A stretch of DNA of 39,086 nucleotides from a virus (taxonomy: Duplodnaviria > Heunggongvirae > Uroviricota > Caudoviricetes), in IMG/VR virus record IMGVR_UViG_2541047917_000011; one strand, 5' to 3'. The translations under genes and the position numbers were made by a program. The notes below the pieces were generated by a model, which saw only the letters and a list, made by a program, of their open reading frames with translations, was not told where the DNA came from and did no database searches. Of this stretch, positions 20,437-28,219 are shown one piece after another; the stretch's first letter is position 1, and every line of letters begins with the position of its first letter.

Positions 20437-21083
20437 TTCTGTAATCCTTCCCGTTCATCCAGTAACGCGTTTATCTGGTTCCGCCAGCGACGACATTGTC
20501 CTGCGTTGTCGATGATGTTGGCGAGAACGTCACGCTGGGAGACACCCGAATCGCGTAACCGGGTGTCAGTGGTTTCAGGTTGCCCGGTCGCTGTGCCAGA
20601 GCGGGTGCCAGCGGCGGCAACTGAGTCTGAATGACCGGTGTCGACGGATGCGTTGTCATATCCGAGTGCGGCGTTGTACTGGCGCACGAAACCGCGAGTA
20701 AACACGCACTCAATGGGATGGCTCTTACCTTTTTCATCAATCCAGCGCTGTGTGGCATCGTTAATTTGCCCCTGTAGTTGTTTATTCCGGCTCTCCAGTT
20801 GAGCAATCTGCTCAAGATAACCGGCTTCAGCCCGCTGCCCGGCGGCCACCTGCTCCTGATACCGTCTGGCCCAGGCCCGCAGCGCAGCATTCTCAAGCGT
20901 TGCCTGCTCCGTTTTGTACGCGTCAAATGCTGACTGCAACTGACTGAGCGCGGTATCACCGTCACGCTTTGCAGAGTCATGACCACTTCTGTATCCCATG
21001 GCATACAGGCCGACCAGAAAGGCATTGATAAGAATGGCCAGCAGAATGCCGCGCCACGGCAGCTTTTTAACCAGATGCCACAC
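20433..21083 (-). CDS. i-spanin (Rz-like): N-terminal TM helix plus coiled-coil periplasmic domain
   Basis: ORF track start 21185 overlaps the endolysin; GTG at 21083 is preceded by GGGGAGG and gives a protein starting VWHLVKKLPWRGILLAILINAFLVGLYA. Confidence 0.55.
   Translation of the reverse strand: MWHLVKKLPWRGILLAILINAFLVGLYAMGYRSGHDSAKRDGDTALSQLQSAFDAYKTEQATLENAALRAWARRYQEQVAAGQRAEAGYLEQIAQLESRNKQLQGQINDATQRWIDEKGKSHPIECVFTRGFVRQYNAALGYDNASVDTGHSDSVAAAGTRSGTATGQPETTDTRLRDSGVSQRDVLANIIDNAGQCRRWRNQINALLDEREGLQK
20471..20737 (-). CDS. o-spanin lipoprotein (Rz1-like) embedded in +1 frame of the i-spanin gene
   Basis: Internal ATG at 20737 gives MKKVRAIPLSACLLAVSC... (signal peptide with lipobox-like LAVSC) followed by Pro-rich mature region. 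Confidence 0.55.
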   Translation of the reverse strand: MKKVRAIPLSACLLAVSCASTTPHSDMTTHPSTPVIQTQLPPLAPALAQRPGNLKPLTPGYAIRVSPSVTFSPTSSTTQDNVVAGGTR

Positions 21084-21807
21084 AACTGCTGCCTCCCCAT
21101 GTGAGATATCGCGGTGCCAGTTCGCGCAGGATGCGCTGCGGATAATGGCGGTTCTCCCGCCAGCTGGCCGCATTGCGTCCGGCATTCACCGTGGCGACAT
21201 GTCCGAACCAGCGGGTGCTGTCCAGACCTTTCTGTGATGCAAGCCGCCTGTCCCGTTGTACCCAGCCCAGACCACCGTTATAGCCCGACAGTGTCATGGC
21301 CATACGCTCGCAGTCACTGGCGGCGCTGACACGCTGCCACAGCCAGCGGTCATAGCTGACCAGCGCCCGGATAGCCCATGCCGGATTAAACGGCTCACGA
21401 CTGCTCAGCATCGGTATCAACTGGCTTATCCAGTCGGCAGTGGCAGGCATGAACTGCGCCAGTCCCTGAGCGCCAGCCGGCGAGATCGCATCAGGTCGCC
21501 AGCCGCTTTCCTGATGCAGTTGCGCGGCGAAATCGGCCACCGGCGCAGACAGTCCCCATTCAAGCCGGGCATTACGGATCACATCATCGCGATACTGCAG
21601 CGCAGCCTGCGGAGGTTGTGCTGCGCATGCCTGGCTAAAAAAGCCGCCACACCAGAGCAACATTGCGACAAAGAATACCCATGCCATATGAACCAGAAAG
21701 GTCCCGGCGCGAACTGACAGGCGTTCGGTTCTGATGAAGACCCGAAAGGCTTCGAAAGCCAGTTTCAGGGACATGCATACAATCCAGGTGATCTGCGGCC
21801 AGTTCAT
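21067..21807 (-). CDS. Endolysin, lytic transglycosylase (SLT domain) with N-terminal hydrophobic signal/SAR-like segment
   Basis: ESGWRPDAISPAGAQGLAQFMP motif; start 21807 lies 2 nt after the holin-like stop; alternative start ATG 21687 (MAWVFFVAMLLW...). Confidence 0.8.
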   Translation of the reverse strand: MNWPQITWIVCMSLKLAFEAFRVFIRTERLSVRAGTFLVHMAWVFFVAMLLWCGGFFSQACAAQPPQAALQYRDDVIRNARLEWGLSAPVADFAAQLHQESGWRPDAISPAGAQGLAQFMPATADWISQLIPMLSSREPFNPAWAIRALVSYDRWLWQRVSAASDCERMAMTLSGYNGGLGWVQRDRRLASQKGLDSTRWFGHVATVNAGRNAASWRENRHYPQRILRELAPRYLTWGGSSCVASG

Positions 21808-21809
21808 GA

Positions 21810-22160
21810 TTAAAGCCCCATCGCAACAGCCAGGCAGACCGCTGCAACAATCAGTGCACGGCGGATTAACGCAGCAGAAAACACCAGGTGAAGGCCGGTC
21901 TGTACCGGGAAACGCCCTTCAGCCATCAGCCTGTCGTCATGTTTCAGGTACTGACCGGGACGGGCTTTGGGGAAGAGCGAACGGTCAAGCCAGTAACCCA
22001 GCACTGCTGCCAGCGTGATGAGTGCCAGCTTGTAGATCACAACAGGCAGCTGCTGTGGTGAGACCAGAGCGATGGTGCCCAGCAACAGCACTGAGGTCAG
22101 CAGCCAGCCGCTGAGGCGAGGTTTTTTAACAGGGGGAATGAATTTTTTCAGGTTTTTCAT
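21810..22160 (-). CDS. Putative holin / lysis membrane protein
   Basis: About 116 aa with 2-3 predicted TM helices; ATG 22160 preceded by AAGGAGA; first gene of lysis cassette. Confidence 0.45.
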   Translation of the reverse strand: MKNLKKFIPPVKKPRLSGWLLTSVLLLGTIALVSPQQLPVVIYKLALITLAAVLGYWLDRSLFPKARPGQYLKHDDRLMAEGRFPVQTGLHLVFSAALIRRALIVAAVCLAVAMGL

Positions 22161-22290
22161 GTGTGTCTCCTTATCTGGTGGAGACAGCATCACAAATACA
22201 GGGCGCGAAGGATTTTAAAGCGCGTTAAGAGAGCCGGGGATACGGGATGTGCAGGATAAACGATGAATTATTCACAGAGGAGAATACGAT

Positions 22291-22767
22291 ATGACGCACA
22301 CACTGAATCCGGTCATCACTGTCACTGTGTCCGGTCCTGTGGGCAGCGGTAAAAGTTACGTACTGGCGCGGATAGAAGAGATGGTGAAACAGGAACTCGG
22401 AAACAGCGTCATTGTCGATGCTGCTGACGTGGAGAATGAGCGCCGTATGAATGGCGAAGATCTGACGACCTGGCAGAAGCCACGGGGTGGCACAGTGATC
22501 AGGCTGGAGGAATACACGGGACAGGGCCTGTTGTCATACGGCGAGGAGCGTATCTGTCGGACGAATGAGCTGCTGGATGTTATATGCCCCACGGGCCGGC
22601 AACCCTGGATACTGCCCGATGCACTGCATGCCACCATTGCGGCACTGATGACAGTTTACGATCAGGAGCTGCTCATGAAGGAGTTACGTAAACTCACCGG
22701 TCAGCCAACAGAATGTTGTTCGTCTCCGAAGTACGGCAAACAGGAAAACGCCCCGGATAATCCTTAA
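22291..22767 (+). CDS. Small P-loop NTPase / nucleotide-kinase-like protein of unknown function
   Basis: 158 aa; Walker A GPVGSGKS near N-terminus, candidate Walker B VIVDAAD; AGGAG RBS; only plus-strand gene amid minus-strand genes. Confidence 0.6.
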   Translation: MTHTLNPVITVTVSGPVGSGKSYVLARIEEMVKQELGNSVIVDAADVENERRMNGEDLTTWQKPRGGTVIRLEEYTGQGLLSYGEERICRTNELLDVICPTGRQPWILPDALHATIAALMTVYDQELLMKELRKLTGQPTECCSSPKYGKQENAPDNP

Positions 22768-22786
22768 GATACCTCCTGAACAGAAA

Positions 22787-22802
22787 CAGCCCTGAAGGGC
22801 TG
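22787..22802. terminator. Hairpin between convergent genes (P-loop gene and accessory operon)
   Basis: CAGCCC-tgaa-GGGCTG perfect stem; T-rich on minus strand and A-rich on plus strand. Confidence 0.45.
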
Positions 22803-22804
22803 CA

Positions 22805-23395
22805 CTAAAAAAAGAAGTGTATTATTGCCCAAACAGCTATAACGATGATTCCCAGCCCAAGAGCCGATTCTAACTTATCTTTGGCAGTCATTTTTACTGT
22901 TGTAGCGGGCGCAGGTAAGTCTTGCTGCTGTGGATTTTCTGTTAGTTGTTTACGAGAAGAAACATCGCCCCTGTTAGTTTGCTTCATGTTGATTACAGAT
23001 GCGTTATGGGCATTATCAGCAGCAATTGACTGAAGTTTTACAAAAGTTTTTGAATCTGTTTTAGCCAGAAGTAACCTATTTCCCGTAAACATTGCCTTAA
23101 AAGTGATAGTTTTTTTCGTCTTGTCCGCCGCACCAAGCAAACCTCCAATGACCAACCCTGCACCACCAAAGATTAATCCACCAAGCAAACCTGCGCCTGC
23201 CGCCTTACCTATACGGCTTTCCTCTTCACTATCCGCAAGTTCAATCGATAAAAGCTCTTCTTTCAGATTTAATACAATATTTTCAGGAAAGCCTTGTTTT
23301 GGTTTTTTGGCAAACACGATGGTACCGAACCCCATGCTTGCCCACCCTTTAGGAAAACTTCCTGCGATAACCTGAATCCCTGCCATGTTCATCAC
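22805..23395 (-). CDS. Membrane protein with glycine-zipper segment, unknown function
   Basis: 196 aa; GAGLLGGLIFGGAGLVIGGLLGA glycine zipper and C-terminal TM (LGLGIIVIAVWAIIHFFF); AT-rich. Confidence 0.5.
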   Translation of the reverse strand: MMNMAGIQVIAGSFPKGWASMGFGTIVFAKKPKQGFPENIVLNLKEELLSIELADSEEESRIGKAAGAGLLGGLIFGGAGLVIGGLLGAADKTKKTITFKAMFTGNRLLLAKTDSKTFVKLQSIAADNAHNASVINMKQTNRGDVSSRKQLTENPQQQDLPAPATTVKMTAKDKLESALGLGIIVIAVWAIIHFFF

Positions 23396-23476: not shown

Positions 23477-24463
23477 CTATTTAAGAATAAAACGGTATTT
23501 ACTGTCAGGAGTGCTTTGCTGATCAAGTAGCAGTGAACGACATGGAGCAGTCAAAACCCGAGCATAACTACCATCAGGGCTTATGTTAATGTAACAAACC
23601 TTGCCCTTAACACTATAATTTTCGGGGACGGATGCCTTTGCTGATACAGTAAATTTAAGGGTATGCCAGCCCGTTTTTTGCTTGTAGCTTGAAACCGAAT
23701 GGAAATCATCTGAGTACTTATTTAACCCTGGAAACATGCTGCGCAGTGCGGGGATGGAATCTTCTATTATTTTATCGTTGGTTTTAATGTTAAAAACGCT
23801 GGTTTCAGTAGAAGCTACTGCTTTGGCATTTCCCCATTTACCAGCGAACACAATCATTCCCACGAAAAATATTGCTACAAGAACTAACACTCCCCCCAAC
23901 ACTACTACATGAGGCTTCCGGCTTCTGGTTGGTACAGTTGCGACTGATTTTGCACCGCTTTCCGATGGAGGTGATAGAGTTTTACTCTCATCACGAATAT
24001 TCAGCAGATCATCAAAATAACCAAACACAGCCTGCAACTGCTCTTTGTCTAGGCCTTTAAGATGGGTTGTACCGAAATGCTTCAGACAGTATCTGTCACG
24101 GTCAAGACGATACCCAGGGTCAGTAAGCGCCATTATTTTGCTGACCAGAAGATTACAGTCCTTCATATTCTGGATCTGTTGTGCATATCTCTGAAGGATC
24201 TCAACCGCACCATGATAATCAGCCGCAGTCATTTCATTAACTGTTTTGGTATTAAGTTTCGTGTGGATCGTCATCCATAGCTCGCGCTTACTTTCCCCCA
24301 GATCAACCAATTCATCCATCAATCTGTGTAAATCGCGTTTTTGCAGCAACGAAATTGGTTGCTGGGCCGAAGGAAGTATGTCAGCAGAATAGTTATGAAT
24401 GGTAACATCACCGCTGACAACGTTACCCACATCCCCGTTAACTGTTTGCTTCTCTTTACTCAT
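23477..24463 (-). CDS. Single-pass membrane protein, unknown function, translationally coupled to repressor
   Basis: 328 aa; start ATG overlaps repressor stop (ATGA); N-terminal cytoplasmic domain, TM helix (VVVLGGVLVLVAIFFVGMIVFAG), C-terminal extracytoplasmic domain. Confidence 0.55.
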   Translation of the reverse strand: MSKEKQTVNGDVGNVVSGDVTIHNYSADILPSAQQPISLLQKRDLHRLMDELVDLGESKRELWMTIHTKLNTKTVNEMTAADYHGAVEILQRYAQQIQNMKDCNLLVSKIMALTDPGYRLDRDRYCLKHFGTTHLKGLDKEQLQAVFGYFDDLLNIRDESKTLSPPSESGAKSVATVPTRSRKPHVVVLGGVLVLVAIFFVGMIVFAGKWGNAKAVASTETSVFNIKTNDKIIEDSIPALRSMFPGLNKYSDDFHSVSSYKQKTGWHTLKFTVSAKASVPENYSVKGKVCYINISPDGSYARVLTAPCRSLLLDQQSTPDSKYRFILK

Positions 24464-24885
24464 CTTCTCTTGGTATTTTTGTTCATTATTCCACCTGTTC
24501 CTATGGTTACGTTACCTTTGATAACATTCCCCAGAACATCTCCATGAATAACCTGTTCCGCCCGTTCTCTGGAGGAGCCAGTAGTCAAGGCCGACAAAAC
24601 TGAACCTTTGACCTGTAATGGTGCCTGCCGGTAGTGCTGCAGTAACTCCATTTCATCACGTGATAAAGTTATACCTGATGACTCCCCGGTAAGAATGAAC
24701 TGTACATTGGCCCCAATTCTTGCAAAGGCTGCAAGTAACTCACCTCCGGGAACAGCAACCCCTCGTTCATATTTCCCCCACATTTCTCTTGAAACGCCAC
24801 AAAGGGCTGCTACTTCAGCCTGCTTGAGTGATAACCGCGAACGCTCAGCTTTGAACCGCGACGCGCAAAGAGAATCAAAATTCAC
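24460..24885 (-). CDS. Prophage repressor, XRE-family HTH
   Basis: HTH_XRE pattern (RLSLKQAEVAALCGVSREMWGKYERG); GTG 24885 with GAGG RBS preferred over ATG 24921, which would bury the early promoter inside the gene. Confidence 0.65.
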   Translation of the reverse strand: MNFDSLCASRFKAERSRLSLKQAEVAALCGVSREMWGKYERGVAVPGGELLAAFARIGANVQFILTGESSGITLSRDEMELLQHYRQAPLQVKGSVLSALTTGSSRERAEQVIHGDVLGNVIKGNVTIGTGGIMNKNTKRR

Positions 24886-24895
24886 ATAAACCTCA

Positions 24896-24924
24896 TTGAC
24901 AATGAGAACAATAGTTCTCATAAT
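24896..24924 (+). promoter_or_regulatory. Early promoter: -35 TTGACA (24896-24901), 17-bp spacer, -10 CATAAT (24919-24924), with 20-bp palindromic operator ATGAGAAC-AATA-GTTCTCAT (24902-24921) in the spacer
   Basis: Read directly from sequence; sits 48 bp upstream of the ner-like ATG and between divergent repressor and early genes. Confidence 0.55.
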
Positions 24925-24971
24925 CTATCACATATAAAACAAACATCATTGCATCAACAAAGGAGACAACA

Positions 24972-25160
24972 ATGACTTCCGAACAAGTTAAAAATCTCTT
25001 CCGTCAGCGTGGTATCACGTTTACCCGCTGGGCCGAAGAACACGGCTACAGCCGCAATGAGGTCTATCGTGTTCTCAATGGACAGACCAAAGCTCGTTAC
25101 GGCAAAGCCCATGAAATTGCCGTAAAACTGGGATTAAAACCCACGTCAAATGCGGCATAA
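24972..25160 (+). CDS. Small DNA-binding regulator at the Ner/Cro position
   Basis: 62 aa basic HTH-like protein; AGGAGA RBS; first gene of the early operon. Confidence 0.6.
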   Translation: MTSEQVKNLFRQRGITFTRWAEEHGYSRNEVYRVLNGQTKARYGKAHEIAVKLGLKPTSNAA

Positions 25161-25212
25161 ATTTTCCACATATGCAACAGGTTATCACATATTGCAAAAA
25201 TGGAAATGTGAC

Positions 25213-25521
25213 ATGAGTAAAGTAAATATTTCCAGTTCTGGGACCCGCATCCTACGTGTACTCAAAGCTCTACGCGGTCATGCTCTGAACGGTGTTTCTA
25301 ACGGTGAACTGGCATCAGCCCTGGGGGAGTCCCCGGCGAATATCAATCGAGCACTTAATACCCTTATTGAAGAGGGACTGGCCATGAAATTAGAGAACGG
25401 ACGTTTCGCACCGGGAATCCAGTTACTACAGATCGCCATGGCTCACAGTCACGAGATGGCGCGTGCACAGGATCGTATTAACGAAATCAACCAACGAGTT
25501 ATTTCAGGTAGTCGTTTGTAA
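25213..25521 (+). CDS. IclR-type winged-helix HTH protein (DNA-binding domain only)
   Basis: TRILRVLKALRGH...NGELASALGESPANINRALNTLIEEGL resembles IclR N-terminal domains; start chosen at internal ATG 25213. Confidence 0.5.
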   Translation: MSKVNISSSGTRILRVLKALRGHALNGVSNGELASALGESPANINRALNTLIEEGLAMKLENGRFAPGIQLLQIAMAHSHEMARAQDRINEINQRVISGSRL

Positions 25522-25531
25522 GGAGTAATCA

Positions 25532-26446
25532 ATGGGACGCACCAAATCACCCGTTAACACTGAACTGAATGTTGAGGTTCCGCTGTCAGATAACATCAAT
25601 GTCAATTTGAACGCTATGACACAGCATCGCATGGAAATTATGCAGCAGTTTGGTGATGGACTGCCTTATGAACGTGATCGCATTGTTCACGAAGCACGTT
25701 TTTATATGGCGCAGAGTGCTGAATCTATGCTGGAAGCGGGTAAGCGGCTGATCATCTTAAAAGAAAATGAGCCACACGGTGATTTTACAAACATTTTAGA
25801 AAATGAACTCGGACTTGCACCACAAGTTGCTCGCCGCATGATGCAAGCCAGTATGAAGTTTTTGGGAGAAGGTGATGAGCCAACAAAACGCTCAACGTTG
25901 AGCGTTTTGGGGAAAGCCAAACTGTACGACCTGATGGTTCTGGATAATGAAGAACTTGATGAATTGGCCGACGGCGGCACAGTTGCCGGCCTGACGCTTG
26001 ACGACGTTGATCGCATGTCAGTACGTGAATTGCGTCAGGCCCTGCGCGAAGCGCGCGAAACCAACGCAGCACAACAGCGCGTACTCGCCGACAAAAATGA
26101 AAAAATAGATTCACTCTCCACCAGACTGGAGAAGAAATCCCGTATTCAGCCGCCTGAGCCTGATGAGGAGGTTAAGAAGCTGCGGGCGGAAGTAACAGCA
26201 TTAGCGGTTGAGGCGGAATCTGCTATCGCCGTCCGACTGTCCAGCGCTTTTGAGACGCTGTGCGCATATTGTGCTGAAAACATGATTGATACCCCCAGAG
26301 ACTTCATGGCAGGCCTGGTCTGTCAACTGGAAAGCACAGCGCGTAGCCTGCGCTCCACATTTGACCTGCCGGACGAGCCAACAGGCAATGCAGCGCCTTC
26401 ATGGCTGACTGAGCCGACGCCACAGATTAACGGGCTGGAGGCATAA
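25532..26446 (+). CDS. Hypothetical early protein (coiled-coil rich)
   Basis: 304 aa ORF immediately upstream of transposase. Confidence 0.5.
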   Translation: MGRTKSPVNTELNVEVPLSDNINVNLNAMTQHRMEIMQQFGDGLPYERDRIVHEARFYMAQSAESMLEAGKRLIILKENEPHGDFTNILENELGLAPQVARRMMQASMKFLGEGDEPTKRSTLSVLGKAKLYDLMVLDNEELDELADGGTVAGLTLDDVDRMSVRELRQALREARETNAAQQRVLADKNEKIDSLSTRLEKKSRIQPPEPDEEVKKLRAEVTALAVEAESAIAVRLSSAFETLCAYCAENMIDTPRDFMAGLVCQLESTARSLRSTFDLPDEPTGNAAPSWLTEPTPQINGLEA

Positions 26447-26449
26447 CCA

Positions 26450-28219
26450 ATGAATGCTGCCCTGACTGAACGACTGGTTTATGTCGCCCGCGCGGCACGT
26501 GACGCGGGGCATGGTAAACGCGGTGCAATATACGACGCTGCCTGTGCTGAACTTGGCATGTCCCGCGCCACTCTGCTGCGCAGGCTGAAGGAGGTCTCTG
26601 TGACTGATAAACGCAAAAAACGCGCCGATGCCGGGCGCAGCGCCCTGACCCGCGACGAAGCCGCGCTGATATCTGCCACACTGCGTGAGGCCACCCGCAA
26701 GAACGGTAAGCGTCTCTATTCCATCGCAGATGCAGTGGAAACCCTGCGGGCTAACGGCTTTATCACCGCAGGCAGAACAGATGAAACCACCAGTGAGTTT
26801 TTCCCGTTGTCTGAAGATGCCATCAGCCGTGCTCTGCGTAACTATGGCCTGCACCCGGAACAACTGGATGCCCCTGCACCACATACCGAAGTGGCCAGTC
26901 TGCATCCCAATCATGTCTGGCAGATTGACGCCTCACTCTGCACGCTTTACTACCTGAGCAATGGACATAAAGGGCTGCAGGTGATGGACAGCGCGAAGTT
27001 CTACAAGAACAAGCCCGCTAACCTTGCCCGTATCGCCAGTGACCGTGTGTGGAGTTACGAGATTACCGACCATGCCAGCGGCTGGATTTACGTTGAGTAT
27101 GTGACGGGCGCGGAATCAGGTGAGAACCTGTGTTCTGTGCTTATCAACGCCATGCAGGAGCGTGGCGGCGCAGACGTGCTGCACGGCGTGCCGAAAATAC
27201 TCTATCTCGACCCCGGCTCGGCAAACACCGCGGGTATGACGAAAAACATGTGCCGCTCACTGGGCATCGACCTGATAGCGCACAAGCCGCATAACGCCCG
27301 CGCCACCGGACAGGTGGAAAAGGCGCGTGACATTATCGAACGCAAGCTGGAGCCGGGTCTGAAGTTCCGGCCGGTTCACAGTCTGGAAGAACTCAACGCG
27401 CTGGCCGCGAAATGGCGCAGCCACTTTAACGCCACGGCTGTTCACAGCCGCCACGGTAAAACCCGCACGGATATCTGGCTGAAGATTACTGCTGAGCAGC
27501 TGAAAAAAGCGCCTTCCGTTGAGGTATGTCGTGAACTGGCTGTGGCGGCACCAGAACTCCGCAAAGTCACGCCAAAACTTCGTGTCTCGTTCCGGGGCAC
27601 TGAATTTGACGTATCAACGGTACCGGGCGTACTGGTTGGTGAAAAACTGATGATTACCCGTAACCCATGGCGCAGCGATGTGGCACAGGTGGTTCTGACC
27701 GGTGAGGACGGCCACGAGACGTTCTTCCTGGTCGAAGAGGTCAGAAAGAACGAGTTTGGCTTTGCTGAAGGCGCGGCGGTATTTGGCGAAAGTTACAAAG
27801 CCCTGCCGGAAACCCCGGCACAGATGGCGGCAAAAGAAACCGAAGCGCTGGTTACCGGTACAGACAACGCCGCAGATGCAGCCGCCGCACGCAAGGCGAA
27901 GGCGCTGCCGTTCGGCGGGCGGCTTGACCCGTATAAACATATCGACGACACCACACTTCCGGCCTATATGCCGAAGCGTGGTCAGGCCTCTGACGTACGC
28001 GGGCCGCGCACTGAACAACGTCCCATGACTCATGTGGAGGCCGCGAAAGCCCTGCGCGATAAGTTCAGCGCCGACGGCCTTACCTGGACGCCGGAACATT
28101 ACCGCCAGTTAACGGCACAGTACCCGGACGGCGTACCGGAAGCCGCACTGGATGAAGTCATGGCCACGCTGACCACACCGGCCCGCAGCAGTGTTATCAG
28201 CATTGTTAACGGCAACTGA
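26450..28219 (+). CDS. DDE transposase, rve (integrase catalytic core) family; not MuA-like
   Basis: 589 aa; N-terminal HTH, catalytic-core-like WQID ... YLDPGSAN ... E spacing. Confidence 0.85.
   Translation: MNAALTERLVYVARAARDAGHGKRGAIYDAACAELGMSRATLLRRLKEVSVTDKRKKRADAGRSALTRDEAALISATLREATRKNGKRLYSIADAVETLRANGFITAGRTDETTSEFFPLSEDAISRALRNYGLHPEQLDAPAPHTEVASLHPNHVWQIDASLCTLYYLSNGHKGLQVMDSAKFYKNKPANLARIASDRVWSYEITDHASGWIYVEYVTGAESGENLCSVLINAMQERGGADVLHGVPKILYLDPGSANTAGMTKNMCRSLGIDLIAHKPHNARATGQVEKARDIIERKLEPGLKFRPVHSLEELNALAAKWRSHFNATAVHSRHGKTRTDIWLKITAEQLKKAPSVEVCRELAVAAPELRKVTPKLRVSFRGTEFDVSTVPGVLVGEKLMITRNPWRSDVAQVVLTGEDGHETFFLVEEVRKNEFGFAEGAAVFGESYKALPETPAQMAAKETEALVTGTDNAADAAAARKAKALPFGGRLDPYKHIDDTTLPAYMPKRGQASDVRGPRTEQRPMTHVEAAKALRDKFSADGLTWTPEHYRQLTAQYPDGVPEAALDEVMATLTTPARSSVISIVNGN

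Follow-up and report, generated by a model that had tools for sequence, protein, structure and literature searches.

Protein pairs coupled by amyloid signaling motifs are known in fungi (HET-S/NWD2, HRAM) and in bacteria (BASS1-10, with Bell and NLR proteins; bioRxiv 10.1101/2020.01.06.895854). The BASS motifs have been described as biased toward G, N, Q, V, and I and as poor in P, L, and K. In the Bab/Agp pair (BASS11), a 20-residue amyloid motif common to adjacent E. coli genes transmits a signal (bioRxiv 10.1101/2024.11.07.622273). Here we analyze virus record IMGVR_UViG_2541047917_000011, a 39,086-nucleotide stretch of DNA (the 39-kb window) that corresponds to a BcepMu-like transposable prophage of E. 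coli. In this window, a short peptide motif is found at the C-terminus of a putative immunity repressor of 153 amino acids (aa) and again at the N-terminus of the product of the next gene, orf328, a membrane-anchored protein with a Flk_N domain.

The pair resembles amyloid signaling systems in that a motif of about 20 residues, unstructured outside an assembly, is located at the C-terminus of one protein and at the N-terminus of the adjacent gene's product; in that many motif classes exist, which match within pairs and differ between pairs; and in that one partner is membrane-directed and the loci are in prophage or mobile regions. It differs in the carriers of the motif: the C-terminal one is a DNA-binding repressor instead of a cell-death domain (HeLo, Bell, TIR, CHAT), and the N-terminal one is a Flk_N or Zn-ribbon membrane protein instead of an NLR, STAND, or TPR sensor. 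Moreover, the two genes share a transcript at the immunity locus of prophages in unicellular Proteobacteria, and the repressor tail has a K/R cluster at its end. The pair would work like amyloid signaling, and we do not class it as a member because the attached domains fail the family definition. Judging from the sequences, we put at about even the chance that the motif copies in the repressor tail and at the orf328 N-terminus are cognate units for homotypic assembly, by which the repressor is coupled to a membrane Flk_N sensor. The features of the two genes are the following, by window position:

24490-24555, minus strand: repressor C-terminal motif copy (aa 123-144), QVIHGDVLGNVIKGNVTIGTGG, found as a BLASTP match to the orf328 N-terminus
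24389-24448, minus strand: orf328 N-terminal motif copy (aa 6-25), QTVNGDVGNVVSGDVTIHNY
24460-24921, minus strand: putative immunity repressor, 153 aa (Pfam HTH_31/HTH_3; PHROG transcriptional regulator/repressor families)
24688-24879, minus strand: XRE-type helix-turn-helix (HTH) of the repressor (aa 15-78)
24580-24660, minus strand: two helices of the repressor (aa 88-114)
24463-24489, minus strand: basic C-terminal end of the repressor, IMNKNTKRR, straight after the motif
24460-24463, minus strand: ATGA overlap of the repressor stop and the orf328 start, read from the sequence
23477-24463, minus strand: orf328, membrane-anchored partner, 328 aa (PHROG 10002 over its full length; Pfam PF27202, Flk_N; AlphaFold2 model, AF2)
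23981-24373, minus strand: Flk_N cytoplasmic helical domain of orf328 (aa 31-161)
23840-23908, minus strand: transmembrane (TM) segment of orf328 (aa 186-208), VVVLGGVLVLVAIFFVGMIVFAG (hydropathy scan; AF2 helix 190-205)
23480-23803, minus strand: periplasmic alpha/beta domain of orf328 (aa 221-328), an optional accessory module (AF2)

The BLASTP comparison aligned repressor residues 120-140 with orf328 residues 3-22 (11 of 21 identical, 17 of 21 positive; E = 3e-4), and a regular expression of the motif matched these two sites only in all six frames of the window. The two peptides quoted by the original prediction are exact in the sequence, and the shared motif that it described was confirmed; its coordinates, 24440-24520, span the junction but clip part of each copy. 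The imperfect direct DNA repeat proposed in addition proved weak. The repeat search at the junction gave only two-copy matches of 8-9 nucleotides (nt), which is chance level (e.g., ACGTTACC at 24420 and 24509). Codon by codon, the copies have 60% nucleotide identity, with different codons at 7 of the 11 identical residues, and the likeness therefore lies in the protein and not in the DNA. No known domain in Pfam, PHROGs, NCBIfam, or PADLOC covers the motif segments.

Related loci from representative genomes and viral contigs were gathered by alignment to the repressor, and in each we read the end of the repressor together with the start of the next gene product. The repressor homologues have the HTH and a helix (HYRxAPLxVKAAxLAALT) in common and differ in their tails. 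Across about 170 loci, when the tail class shifts, the downstream N-terminus shifts with it. The motif classes included GDVxGNV, NRVAGRDY/F, FNGxxxGQF..IIN, FHGxVGQV, and GGVQVG, and the same host genera harbor several different classes. Prophages with the module are BcepMu-like, P2-like, or of other kinds, and their hosts belong to Enterobacterales, Pasteurellaceae, Pseudomonas, Francisella, and Betaproteobacteria. Matched pairs include SGKGNRVAGRDFNENKK with STGGQNRVAGRDFNENK, and these:

Salmonella: repressor tail INVSGSGNRVAGRDYHE; downstream N-terminus LNSNGDKNKIAGRDYKE
Pectobacterium: repressor tail QIFNGDVSGQFAGNQIIN; downstream N-terminus QEFNGTAQGQFSSRDIIN
Izhakiella: repressor tail GKGNRVAGRDFNENK; downstream N-terminus GGQNRVAGRDFNENK
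Francisella: repressor tail FHGNTIGQVVDGDIKN; downstream N-terminus FQHSQIGQVAAGDIIN
Mannheimia: repressor tail HGGQFSTGTINNY; downstream N-terminus HGGQFGQVINNY
Viral contigs: repressor tail HRFALGDYHEN; downstream N-terminus HRIALGDYYEH
Viral contigs: repressor tail GGVQVGYVGGSV; downstream N-terminus GGVQVGKVDGDV

For 64 non-redundant pairs, the summed local-alignment score of the cognate pairs was 15.4 standard deviations above that of permuted pairings, a value reached in 0 of 20,000 permutations. A stricter test selected pairs by one property alone, G/N/Q richness of both the tail and the N-terminus, and removed redundancy at 60% on either side; among the 25 pairs that remained, the cognate sequence was the best match in 16 (about one expected; z = 10.8; 0 of 50,000 permutations). 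When the search was reversed and started from Flk_N proteins, almost every viral contig proved to have a member of this HTH family, with a matching tail, immediately upstream. Co-variation at the Y/F position of AGRD[YF] was mixed. In 29 matched pairs, different codons were used at 163 of 286 identical residues (57%) and nucleotide identity was 41-69%, so that the match is kept by selection on the protein and not by recent duplication or gene conversion. The motif in the window is one instance of a widespread and statistically robust pairing that is apparently undescribed; a literature search, with subscription-only papers outside its coverage, found no description of a repressor/Flk_N motif pair.

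The motif is conserved more than the remainder of either protein. In 20 full or partial Enterobacterales orthologues of orf328 (44-82% overall identity), KQTVNGDVGNVVSGDVTIHNY hardly changes, in contrast to the variable linker and periplasmic parts. Homologues of the class-1 repressor retain ERAEQVIHGDVLGNVIKGNVTIGxGGIMNKNTKRK even at about 55% overall identity, and both motifs are unchanged in an E. coli lineage that has diverged by 6% in orf328. These alignments show a motif pair under protein-level selection. The suggestion of the original prediction that the motif is a shared interaction or regulatory peptide gains strong, though indirect, support from this near-invariance and from the joint change of tail and N-terminus classes.

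The core of the motif has about 20 residues, with a median start at residue 3 of the partner and a median end 3 residues before the C-terminus of the repressor. Its composition is rich in N and G and poor in L and P (log2 enrichment: N +1.72, G +1.21, V +0.47, Q +0.26, K -0.53, L -2.62, P -2.79); N is enriched 3.3-fold and G 2.3-fold, H and D are also enriched, and L, P, M, C, and W are strongly depleted. This is the same G/N/Q/V-rich and P/L-poor bias as in amyloid signaling motifs. The residues that two cognate copies have in common are mostly G, N, V, R, Q, A, and D. As AF2 monomers, both copies have a predicted local distance difference test score (pLDDT) below 50 beside confidently modeled domains. 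In-register parallel stacking, as in cross-beta and beta-solenoid folds, demands similar and not complementary sequences, and the cognate copies are similar rather than complementary, as such stacking would require. In three homologues (P0070, P0074, P0127), the repressor tail carries two tandem motif pseudo-repeats, for example VIVSGDGNVVAGENNNVRIAGRDYNEG, which recall the double repeat of HET-s-type effectors.

The product of orf328 is laid out as the N-terminal motif, the Flk_N helical domain, a linker, one TM segment, and a periplasmic alpha/beta domain. In the AF2 model, aa 1-29 have a pLDDT below 50, aa 31-161 are confidently helical, and aa 221-328 form an alpha/beta domain with a pLDDT above 90; the N-terminus is not docked on Flk_N. 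PF27202 is precomputed on P0001, which is identical to orf328, and on the partners in loci L002 and L004. The NCBIfam Flk model NF007987 matches aa 19-147 with E = 2.9e-12 and 46.6 bits, against an equivalog cut-off of 353; by these profile matches, the globular domain is a Flk_N member and not a Flk equivalog. The periplasmic domain gave no significant structural match, and orf328 matched no toxin or defense family in Pfam, NCBIfam, or PADLOC. Between two E. coli cassette lineages, 12 of the 17 amino-acid changes in orf328 are in aa 264-325 of the periplasmic domain (window 23489-23674), which may be a diversifying, outward-facing surface; the same lineages differ by one change in the repressor and by none in either motif.

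Flk (Fluke/RflH) regulates the flagellar type III secretion switch of Salmonella and E. coli. It has a homologous helical domain, an inner-membrane anchor, and its bulk in the cytoplasm. In contrast, true Flk proteins have about 333 aa with two domain repeats, a Pro/Gly-rich N-terminus (MQPxSGPG...), a C-terminal tail anchor, and no beta-type motif, and they are chromosomal without an adjacent repressor, whereas orf328 has a single domain copy and an extra periplasmic domain. An exhaustive profile search of 1.84 billion representatives found only 134 Flk_N clusters at 50% identity. The motif is absent from the two-repeat, true Flk-type proteins, and the phage-type single-domain Flk_N proteins have many related versions of it. 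A word-indexed Flk_N search returned mostly one Salmonella subfamily, and a single-protein scan returned close relatives only.

Other partners are almost always membrane-anchored, with few soluble ones, and most are shorter than orf328, with the motif, Flk_N, and a C-terminal TM anchor. Further layouts are the motif with a Zn-ribbon and two TM segments, the motif with a 'TGIWC' domain and one TM segment, and the motif with two TM segments. The AGRDY class is paired both with Flk_N partners and with Zn-ribbon partners that have two TM segments. Both class 1 and an FHG class (L054) include partners with the periplasmic domain, and the short class-1 partners P0022 and P0024 are without it. In the P2-like phage 520873, a different HTH subfamily bears the AGRDY tail. 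Since the same motif is found with different partner domains and with a different HTH subfamily, the repressor tail follows the partner motif and nothing else. Among the collected repressor open reading frames (ORFs), no HTH-Flk_N fusion was found.

The repressor gene is divergent from a ner-like HTH gene and a transposase/MuB-like early operon. Its XRE-HTH product occupies the position of the Mu/BcepMu-type immunity repressor; repressor activity is putative. The AF2 model has a pLDDT above 90 over the HTH and below 50 over aa 125-153, so the tail is predicted to be disordered. In every class, the motif-bearing tails again have a K/R cluster at their very end, with a mean of 2.9 K/R in the last 8 residues vs 1.75 in tails without a match. 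A Peptidase_S24 domain was not found in the repressor with Pfam, and by that criterion it is not a LexA/CI-type autocleaving protein; the homologous HTH proteins P0092, P0093, and P0102 have a Peptidase_S24 module at the same C-terminal position. The ATGA overlap suggests translational coupling of the repressor and orf328, and the gap between the two genes in related loci goes from -4 to about +35 nt. Many repressor homologues start at MNFDSL, which corresponds to a GTG at aa 13 (24885), and this may therefore be the true start.

To our knowledge, the repressors of most temperate phages that depart from the lambda paradigm are unable to self-cleave, and little is known of how these phages are induced. 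For the locus in the window we infer direct binding of the two motif copies, an in-register or amyloid geometry, a direction of signaling, and an effect on induction. The motif would be unstructured in the monomer and would fold, into a beta-arch or cross-beta unit as in amyloid signaling, only when stacked in register on another copy of its kind. The orf328 protein would be the sensor and nucleator: on an envelope or membrane cue it would cluster, and its clustered cytoplasmic N-terminal motifs would nucleate the fold. The fold would recruit and template repressor tails, the repressor would leave its operators, and the early promoter would be derepressed. The link to orf328 probably serves as a receiver for SOS-independent induction; the tail would be a private receiver of this kind, and the motif classes would be separate channels. 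We favor the direction from partner to repressor since related HTH proteins carry Peptidase_S24, that is, an induction receiver, at the position of the tail, and since a nucleation-limited switch suits an irreversible decision. In its full form, the proposal is a prion-like lysogeny switch: by templating, a membrane-anchored phage sensor would turn its own repressor's tail into a cross-beta assembly, with all-or-none SOS-independent induction. In this form it is tentative, and we regard it as possible rather than probable. Qtip of vibriophage VP882 is said to be a small phage protein that inactivates a non-cleavable repressor independently of SOS by sequestering it into assemblies; it is reportedly soluble and separately regulated, binds the N-terminal domain of the repressor, and has no motif in common with it.

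Several observations weigh against the coupling of a membrane sensor to the repressor as drawn here. At loci of Lonsdalea and Pseudomonas, the motif is in the partner, and the repressor has a globular C-terminal domain without the motif; the motif can thus exist unpaired. In Escherichia phage 520873 (Peduoviridae; L188, 1201-1813), the Flk_N partner gene is frameshifted and unannotated and the repressor with its AGRDY tail is intact, so the partner is dispensable for this phage. Three prophages of IMG genome 2687453785 (L158, L164, L171) have Flk_N partners that start with a near-identical NRVAGRD motif; the matching repressor tail was recovered for L158 only, the upstream repressors of L164 and L171 having been missed by ORF calling. 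Motif channels would then not always be private, and cross-talk between co-resident prophages is possible. In the AGRD class, a second pseudo-repeat is in the membrane protein and not in the repressor; by analogy with HET-s this marks the effector-like side and argues for the opposite direction of signaling. No partner is an NLR/STAND sensor, nor is the repressor a cell-death effector. The lysogen expresses the two proteins together, so some mechanism must keep them apart at rest; and most partners are without a periplasmic domain, hence without an evident cue.

The variant loci of Lonsdalea and Pseudomonas are L009-L013, L019, L021, L023, L025, L069, L071, L079, L080, L087, and L185. Their repressors have a C-terminal domain of the form ...YNFLIKEP...VLKLVINH, and their membrane proteins have a helical N-terminal extension of 25-55 aa followed by an internal copy of the motif (ITISVGGDNPGSIHVGSVVNIN).

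The reverse direction, with the logic of toxin-antitoxin (TA) or abortive infection (Abi) systems, is a serious rival to signaling from the partner to the repressor, although we judge it rather unlikely. Here, the repressor tail would cap or control the N-terminal assembly motif of the partner. When the repressor is lost, titrated, or attacked (by curing, by an anti-repressor of a superinfecting phage, or on induction), the membrane protein would self-assemble and cause exclusion, cell death, or help with lysis. The gene order and the ATGA overlap are like those of type II TA systems with XRE-HTH antitoxins (MqsA, HipB, HigA), in which an HTH protein with a disordered C-terminal tail is encoded upstream with overlapping start and stop codons and the tail is presumed to contact the downstream product; the repressor also has weak matches to MqsA/HipB/PezA-type HTHs. 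In known amyloid signaling, the effector is the membrane-targeting protein; the AGRD-class partners have two pseudo-repeats, another effector trait; and the partners whose repressor is without the motif fit a primary role in partner self-assembly. However, orf328 belongs to no toxin or defense family that we could match, TA partners share no motif and their neutralization needs no like-with-like sequences, the supposed antitoxin is at the immunity position of a prophage, and Flk, the relative of Flk_N, is a regulator and not a toxin.

Static docking without templating is improbable. A stable beta-sheet heterodimer would tether part of the repressor to the membrane. Such tethering might buffer the repressor level or bring repressor molecules to a membrane protease such as FtsH. 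Co-variation and the terminal position of the motifs fit any direct contact between peptides, the partners are membrane-anchored, and the topology is like that of membrane-anchored anti-sigma factors. RseA, the anti-sigma factor of sigma-E, is a single-pass inner-membrane protein that holds the transcription factor with its cytoplasmic N-terminus and can sense the envelope with its periplasmic C-terminus. The RseA-type proteins and orf328 have a single-pass anchor and a co-transcribed target in common; they have no relation in sequence or fold, the contact at our locus would be between short like peptides and not through a domain wrapped around the factor, and most partners are without a periplasmic domain. 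Against static docking, the pairing of strands in a heterodimer needs no similar sequences, a disordered segment rich in N/G/Q and poor in L/P is typical of stacking motifs, and constitutive tethering with stoichiometric co-expression would remove the repressor.

Recognition by a third party, or mimicry, is more improbable still. One protease or chaperone could recognize both peptides, or the partner copy could be a pseudo-ligand that competes with the repressor tail for a pocket of Flk_N. A shared binding site can yield similar peptides, and there is a precedent in the repressor of Mu, whose degradation by ClpXP is controlled by its C-terminal tail. But the same class occurs with unrelated Flk_N and Zn-ribbon partners, which leaves no common pocket; several classes in the same host genera would be needless for a conserved host factor; and AF2 does not place the orf328 N-terminus on Flk_N. 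Both static tethering and third-party recognition are less likely than homotypic coupling.

The original prediction also considered that the motif marks a recombination seam left by cargo insertion. Prophage immunity regions have a mosaic makeup, and the few DNA matches of 8-9 nt could be read in this way; a functionless seam or a relic of junction duplication is nevertheless very improbable, and, as far as sequences can show, we rejected it on codon divergence, comparison with phage PhiKM, and class co-variation. PhiKM, the closest named phage (classified in Bcepmuvirus), has homology to window positions 21083-22755 (98%) and 24920-26336 (82%), which places the mosaic boundaries at 22755/22756 and 24919/24920 and not at the junction. 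The 2.2 kb between them, with orf196, orf328, and the repressor, is replaced in PhiKM by a different cassette, whose own repressor of 118 aa has no G/N-rich tail and no Flk_N neighbor. The three genes are thus exchanged as a single cassette. Of 5,426 complete E. coli genomes, 127 have the repressor and 127 have orf328, and the two genes were neighbors in every record inspected. The same repressor C-terminus without the downstream cargo, which the original prediction named as a refuting observation, was not found. The copies have diverged synonymously, with different codons at 57% of identical residues; the motif is conserved beyond the rest of both proteins; and a relic cannot give class-specific co-variation. 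A chance likeness between two low-complexity G/N/V stretches is barely credible: the motif is short and compositionally biased, but the pairwise match has E = 3e-4, only two sites occur in the window, and the cognate was the best match in 16 of 25 cases among compositionally similar tails and N-termini.

A short, exchangeable peptide that couples a repressor to a membrane protein would give a concrete and testable route from the state of the envelope or membrane to the lysis-lysogeny decision, and the pairing would give the phage branch of the Flk_N family its first functional context. If the contact is amyloid-like, amyloid signaling would extend from the control of cell death to gene regulation, and to unicellular bacteria and phages; the motifs would also be orthogonal tags of about 20 residues for synthetic protein coupling. 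Should the prion-like switch be true, this would be the first amyloid signaling motif on a transcription factor instead of a death effector, and the motif classes would be immunity-like channels, private or deliberately shared, among co-resident prophages.

In the rest of the prophage, the late genes are leftward, below about 22200. The rightward arm has the ner-like HTH gene (24972-25160), an IclR-type regulator, a DUF3102 protein, the transposase (26450-28219), and a MuB/ExeA-like ATPase. Between the arms, on the minus strand, are the XRE-HTH gene, orf328, and orf196. Three further features belong to this region:

24896-24924, plus strand: early-promoter-like site TTGACA-17-CATAAT facing the ner-like gene (consensus scan, 11 of 12 matches)
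22805-23395, minus strand: orf196, a glycine-rich (glycine-zipper-like) membrane protein and the final gene of the exchanged cassette (PHROG 12025)
22786-22803, minus strand: terminator-like hairpin after orf196, at the end of the repressor-orf328-orf196 transcription unit (consensus scan only)

In other loci, orf196 is not present downstream of the pair. The early-promoter-like site overlaps the annotated 5' end and ATG of the repressor gene on the opposite strand. The left mosaic boundary falls in the 3' end of a P-loop gene (22291-22767, annotated as 'ABC transporter ATPase'), which encodes 158 aa in the window and 242 aa in PhiKM.

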